A stretch of 2,487 nucleotides of DNA from Escherichia coli (GTDB taxonomy: Bacteria; Pseudomonadota; Gammaproteobacteria; Enterobacterales; Enterobacteriaceae), in NCBI RefSeq assembly GCF_003334405.1, contig NZ_QOWM01000036.1, one strand, 5' to 3'. The notes beneath the pieces are model-generated. The model was not told the DNA's origin. It saw nothing but the letters and a program-made list of their open reading frames with translations, and searched no databases. Positions 940 to 1,001 of the stretch are shown here, piece by piece. Each line of letters starts with the position of its first letter. Within the stretch, counting starts at the first letter, position 1. The translations under genes were made by a program, and so were the position numbers.

Positions 940-965
940 TGTAGATTCAATTGGTCAACGCAACA
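940..965. repeat. IS30 left terminal inverted repeat (26 bp)
   Basis: 940-965 matches the reverse complement of 2135-2160 at 23 of 26 positions. Confidence 0.88.
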
Positions 966-988
966 GTTATGTGAAAACATGGGGTTGC

Positions 989-993
989 GGAGG
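989..993 (+). promoter_or_regulatory. Shine-Dalgarno sequence for the IS30 transposase
   Basis: GGAGG, 8 nt upstream of the ATG at 1002. Confidence 0.75.
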
Positions 994-1001
994 TTTTTTG
1001 A

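Follow-up and report, generated by a model that had tools for sequence, protein, structure and literature searches.

Placement of the transposase promoter in the left end of IS30 relative to a mapped transcription start

Where does transcription of the transposase gene begin in the left end of IS30? The question is raised by positions 940-1001 of the window, the term used here for the whole 2487-bp stretch of Escherichia coli DNA that was analysed. A preliminary description of this region, made from the letters alone, noted GGAGG upstream of the transposase gene and proposed a weak promoter of the sigma70 type lying partly within the inverted repeat. Its best candidate was TTCAAT, a 16-nt spacer and TATGTG, each hexamer matching the consensus at three of six positions. 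The motifs are present as described, GGAGG is confirmed at 989-993 with the ATG at 1002, and a promoter that is weak in sequence and has its -35 element in the left repeat agrees with the secondary literature. Published transcription start data nonetheless point to a different pair of hexamers, set somewhat further downstream.

The element and its insertion context

The window comprises IS600, a member of the IS3 family whose genes lie on the minus strand, interrupted by an intact IS30 on the plus strand (table 1). The element at 940-2160 is canonical IS30. Of 5426 complete E. coli genomes, 3825 carry copies to which it is 99.9% identical. It differs from IS30A of E. coli K-12 MG1655 at three of 1221 bp (IS30 nt 307, 843 and 1046), all internal; over the first 62 nt of the left end the two copies have no differences. 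Assignment of positions 940-1001 to the left end of IS30, as in the preliminary description, is borne out by this identity and by the element boundaries. The product of ORF-A scores 276.9 bits against NCBIfam NF033563 (IS30 family transposase), for which the cut-off is 80. On the host side, IS600 orfB occupies 862-44 on the minus strand and matches the IS3 family transposase model NF033516 with 334.7 bits. When IS30 and one GT are removed, the rebuilt empty site of 160 nt is 100% identical to intact IS600. The identical IS600::IS30 junction was found in 616 genomes and therefore represents an inherited nested insertion. Comparison of the entire window with Rfam gave no match. The K-12 IS30 is the prototype of the family, and its promoter is known as P30A. 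The same 26-bp repeats, 2-bp duplication, 383-aa transposase and -35 element in the left repeat are present here. The element itself offers no difference from this prototype; only the context does, namely a position inside IS600 and antisense to the IS600 genes.

Several further observations concern the host sequences. In many O157, O26 and O103 genomes that carry IS600::IS30, the neighbouring gene is annotated merely as 'helix-turn-helix domain-containing protein' and no full IS30 transposase is annotated, which suggests that these lineages have a truncated or disrupted copy of the nested IS30. Three independent IS30 copies occupy the homologous spot of their IS3-family hosts, in both orientations and a few bases from the A6-7G run that is the -1 frameshift motif. 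They are the copy in IS600 (window 925-939 and 2161-2180), IS911A::IS30A of K-12 (L001 2501-2541 and 3763-3802) and the K-12 IS30B remnant beside ISX (L002 12112-12135). Their positions suggest that the frameshift regions of IS3-family elements are an insertion hot spot for IS30. A promoter scan of the whole window at a threshold of at least 9/12 returned a sole site, TTAACG-17-TAGAAT (9/12; 2472-2444, minus strand). It lies in the left end of IS600, upstream of the orfA ATG (2423), and is probably the promoter of IS600 itself; transcripts from it would run on into IS30 in antisense orientation relative to the transposase gene.

Table 1. Features of the IS600::IS30 window. Coordinates are window positions; distances with a sign are relative to the transcription start.
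Feature	Position	Strand	Basis or remark
IS600 (IS3 family) host, orfB part	1..939	-	annotation of matching genomes (IS3-like element IS600)
Target duplication GT, 2 bp	938..939; second copy 2161-2162		read from sequence
IS30, full-length 1221-bp copy	940..2160	+	identity to E. coli copies and MG1655 IS30A
Left inverted repeat (IRL), 26 bp	940..965	+	23/26 match to reverse complement of 2135-2160
TAGATT, -10 half of junction promoter	942..947	+	simulated IRR + 2 bp + IRL junction
TTCAAT, -35 of preliminary description, not supported	946..951	+	chance-level match; incompatible with mapped start
-35 element of resident promoter: TGGTCA 952-957 (17-nt spacer) or TTGGTC 951-956 (18-nt spacer)	951..957	+	-35..-30 from start G987
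TATGTG, -10 of preliminary description, not supported	968..973	+	T missing at sixth position; -19..-14 from start; C in place of T968 in three diverged copies
Extended -10, TG-a-AAACAT	972..980	+	TG at -15/-14, hexamer 975-980 at -12..-7; geometry relative to start, conservation
Transcription start G, IS30 nt 48	987	+	Cappable-seq start U00096.2:269812 (+)
Shine-Dalgarno (SD) sequence GGAGG	989..993	+	8 nt before ATG; kept in variants
Transposase gene ORF-A, 383 aa, single long ORF	1002..2153	+	ORF list; NCBIfam NF033563
Right inverted repeat (IRR), 26 bp	2135..2160		23/26 match with IRL
TTGACA, outward -35 in IRR	2142..2147	+	junction geometry
IS600 remainder with orfA (start 2423)	2163..2487	-	

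The mapped start and the resident promoter

Cappable-seq of K-12 (Ettwiller et al. 2016) provides a primary 5' end at U00096.2:269812 (+), with a relative read score (RRS) of 32.8 and an enrichment of 4.07. The entries used were those of the plus strand between 268 and 317 kb, and this transcription start site (TSS) ranks fourth in strength among the 81 listed there. Its transfer to the window depends on the offset between genome versions, which is +776 at this locus, as insI1 starts at 269827 in U00096.2 and at 270603 in U00096.3. IS30A spans 270541-271761 in U00096.3; the start thus falls at 270588, equivalent to IS30 nt 48 and to G987 of the window. With an offset of 776, 93% of 15 TSSs have a purine at +1 and 87% a pyrimidine at -1, compared with at most 73% purine for the other offsets in 772-780. 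The data of Kim et al. 2012 served to confirm the coordinate frame. Their only TSS here is a 2-read site at 269643 in the unique IS911 flank, reads from repeats presumably having been dropped. The SMRT-Cappable-seq listing at IS30A contains only a transcript from the IS911 promoter passing through, and a search of the EDL933 Cappable-seq supplements for IS30 or IS600 terms returned none. The start at G987 comes from one TSS data set, the reads of which multi-map among the three IS30 copies of K-12 and are not assignable to one copy or context. Shared reads leave its placement unaffected, because every promoter element lies within IS30.

The sequence immediately upstream of G987 contains a plausible sigma70-type arrangement. 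TGGTCA is followed after 17 nt by AAACAT, with 7 of 12 consensus matches and, in addition, the extended -10 motif TG. Candidate arrangements were ranked before the TSS data were examined, and TGGTCA-17-TG-a-AAACAT was the top one wholly within IS30. The start lies exactly 7 nt past AAACAT and 2 nt before GGAGG, which begins at +3, and leaves a leader of 15 nt to the ATG. Relative to it, AAACAT, TG and TGGTCA all occupy canonical positions. AAACAT retains the A at -11 and the T at -7, the two most important positions of a -10 element. The -35 region, in the centre of IRL, is less clear: TGGTCA matches the consensus at 4/6 positions with a 17-nt spacer and TTGGTC at 3/6 with an 18-nt spacer; both are plausible and neither is strong. 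In a simple weighted hexamer model built on general consensus frequencies, TGGTCA-17-AAACAT scores 5.1 bits, as against -0.35 bits for the pair in the preliminary description. The promoter scan at a threshold of at least 9/12 found no site in 940-1001.

This placement agrees with the older description of the element. According to a secondary account citing Dalrymple 1984, the IS30 promoter has its -35 element in the left inverted repeat and its -10 element within an internal symmetrical sequence. The sequence ATGTGAAAACAT at 969-980 fits the latter. The same body of secondary literature calls the transposase promoter weak. As RRS values go, 32.8 is not low; 'weak' therefore refers to the match to the consensus and to the literature, not to this data set.

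Conservation was considered as an independent line of evidence. Copies of IS30 in E. coli are uninformative in this respect, as nearly all are more than 99% identical. The comparison set consists of three copies on plasmids of Raoultella and Enterobacter, whose first 301 nt have diverged by 6-10%. In the stretch separating the repeat from the ATG, these carry substitutions only at 968, at 982-984 (the discriminator) and at 994, 997 and 1001 (the spacer between SD and ATG). TGaAAACAT, G987 and GGAGG are unchanged in all three; position 968, the first base of TATGTG, is C instead of T in each of them. The -35 region at 951-957 is unchanged in four variants, an agreement confounded by the function of the inverted repeat. 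Four sequence variants make up the test, and transposase binding and sub-terminal functions also depend on this DNA; as weak evidence, conservation points to TGaAAACAT and G987 over TATGTG.

IS30 has a known antisense promoter on the minus strand. On the plus strand of IS30A, Cappable-seq lists nine more starts, all weaker, which correspond to window positions 1041, 1086, 1131, 1771, 1785, 1920, 2049, 2067 and 2148. Their RRS values range from 1.8 to 12.2, with the strongest at IS30 nt 981; for two of them, the IS30B remnant has starts at the equivalent IS30 positions.

Other sources of transposase transcripts

The inverted repeats also hold the two halves of a second promoter. In a simulated junction, TTGACA of IRR and TAGATT of IRL form TTGACA-17-TAGATT. 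Its score of 14.2 bits, the same for any 2-bp spacer, compares with 3.6 bits for the resident promoter. A strong promoter, Pjunc, has been described at the IRL-IRR junction of IS30 (PMC9333248, citing Dalrymple 1987), and the same source holds it responsible for high transposase levels and for instability. TAGATT and TTGACA are taken to be the known strong junction promoter, with the strength in vivo drawn from that literature. In the integrated element of the window, no -35 element able to activate TAGATT in situ was found in the IS600 flank (CTCCTG, 1.4 bits).

It could be argued from this disparity that the resident promoter is negligible, that transposase is made from the junction promoter of circles or dimers or by read-through from outside, and that the start at nt 48 is minor or condition-specific. 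Both the difference in score and the role assigned to Pjunc in the literature speak for such a scheme, as does the SMRT-Cappable-seq transcript of K-12 (TSS 270257), a long RNA that runs from the IS911 promoter through IS30A. Set against it is the nt-48 TSS itself, which is triphosphate-enriched and, by its RRS, about 10 times as strong as typical neighbouring TSSs. In the window, moreover, IS600 is opposite in orientation, and read-through from the host element yields no sense transcripts. A negligible resident promoter is unlikely, and the scheme is largely compatible with the favoured model, as both promoters can operate.

Two observations from K-12 concern transcription across the ends of nested copies. 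The IS911A-promoter transcript (MG1655 270257, L001 2258) is of operon length and extends through IS30A to the eyeA sRNA, which shows that a co-oriented host insertion sequence can transcribe across a nested IS30. Outside the IS30B remnant (L002 12093-12129), 18 nt from its right end, Cappable-seq lists a TSS with an RRS of 11.4, in a flank nearly identical to that of the window. It fits TTGACA of IRR with an 18-nt spacer and a T-run. Window positions 2142-2178 share this geometry, and judged by sequence an outward start near 2178, antisense to IS600 orfA, is possible.

A site in the flanking host DNA might also drive transcription into this particular copy of IS30. TTTTCA (909-914) and TACGCT (932-937), 17 nt apart in IS600, have the top weighted score within 900-1001, 6.2 bits. 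The site is a 7/12 sequence match and is absent from the promoter scan, and scores of this size arise by chance: the 99.9th percentile of approximately 12,000 positions leaves about a dozen. That it serves IS30 is highly improbable.

The pair proposed in the preliminary description, TTCAAT as -35 and TATGTG as -10, implying a start near 979-982, has an acceptable 16-nt spacer. It too conforms to the secondary account, the -35 lying within IRL and the -10 overlapping the symmetrical sequence. A match of this quality can, however, be found almost anywhere. Pairs with at least 3 + 3 matches and a spacer of 16-18 nt number 258 on the plus strand of the window; 92% of all 62-nt segments of the window contain one, as do 94% of random 62-mers with the composition of IS30, and the match is therefore uninformative. 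The -10 hexamer has no T at position 6, where one is critical. Most directly, the proposal can be compared with a mapped start, and G987 does not fit it; by the criterion set in the preliminary description itself, this refutes the choice of hexamers. The start lies 13 nt past TATGTG and places that hexamer at -19..-14 instead of -12..-7. Cappable-seq lists no plus-strand TSS at 269765-269811, equivalent to window 940-986, and hence none at 978-982, where these hexamers predict one. The change at T968 in the diverged copies and the reported footprint of the transposase (see below), which spares the outer termini of the repeat and fits a -35 element at IS30 nt 13-18 better than at nt 7-12, argue in the same direction. 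A functional role for TTCAAT and TATGTG is highly improbable.

Operation of the left end and its relatives

The model favoured here, in which IRL, a resident extended -10 promoter starting at G987 and a latent junction -10 share the left end, is considered probable with good confidence. It builds on observations of element identity, hexamer geometry, a TSS in an identical copy and conservation; sigma70 dependence, repression by transposase of its own promoter and the in vivo strength of Pjunc are inferred from the literature. (i) Positions 940-1001 would pack overlapping signals, among them the 26-bp IRL, to which transposase binds. (ii) The resident promoter would be an extended -10 promoter of the sigma70 type with a poor consensus match, its -35 element in the middle of IRL, TG and AAACAT downstream, and its start at G987. 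(iii) Binding of transposase to IRL probably represses this promoter, because the -35 element lies in the transposase-binding part of the repeat. In the secondary literature, a 17-kDa N-terminal fragment of transposase is reported to footprint the central part of the inverted repeats, overlapping the promoter and probably repressing it, with the outer termini of the repeat unprotected. (iv) TAGATT would be silent in the integrated element. (v) Once a minicircle or tandem dimer joins the two repeats through a 2-bp spacer, TTGACA of IRR would come to lie 17 nt upstream of TAGATT and create a strong promoter. (vi) The junction promoter would thereby boost transposase only in the transposition intermediate.

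The transcripts may also differ at the level of RNA. Two predicted hairpins flank the ribosome-binding site, at 959-989 and 1021-1038 (z-scores -2.8 to -4.2). The start at G987 falls in the 3' arm of the first; resident, junction-promoter and read-through transcripts would therefore differ in 5' structure. In the resident transcript of the canonical element, folding predictions pair the SD sequence with CCUCUG (1033-1038) in the 3' arm of the second hairpin. The predicted probability that the SD is unpaired is 0.16 for the resident transcript, compared with 0.36-0.47 for longer ones. By this folding model, pairing of the SD in the short resident leader might favour translation of transcripts from the transposition intermediate and, if true, would add a translational layer on top of junction-promoter control. 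In the diverged copies, bases 1023, 1025 and 1034 of the anti-SD and hairpin are altered without consistent compensation, and the second hairpin is not conserved. Given these uncompensated changes, translational gating gains no comparative support, and the idea is very doubtful.

Related arrangements are known from other families. In the copy-out-paste-in elements IS911, IS2, IS21 and IS256, Pjunc likewise combines an outward -35 in IRR with an inward -10 in IRL and is strong only in the circular or tandem intermediate; a weak resident promoter overlaps the left repeat in these elements also. IS30 differs from them in its junction spacer of 2 bp and perfect TTGACA, and in a resident promoter with an extended -10 and an unusually short 15-nt leader. 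There is a further likeness to IS2, the resident promoter of which also has an extended -10 next to or overlapping IRL and is overlapped by the element's own DNA-binding protein. IS2, a member of the IS3 family, possesses a separate OrfA repressor, whereas IS30 has a single transposase, the N-terminal domain of which would repress.

A weak promoter embedded in the inverted repeat together with a strong junction promoter is already known biology, described since the 1980s, and for a textbook element such as IS30 the present refinement matters little. As a general point, spotting hexamers at the level of three matches in six is unable to place a promoter. On public TSS data, the resident promoter sits approximately 7 nt further downstream than proposed and has an extended -10 and a 15-nt leader; the practical value of this result lies in annotation.
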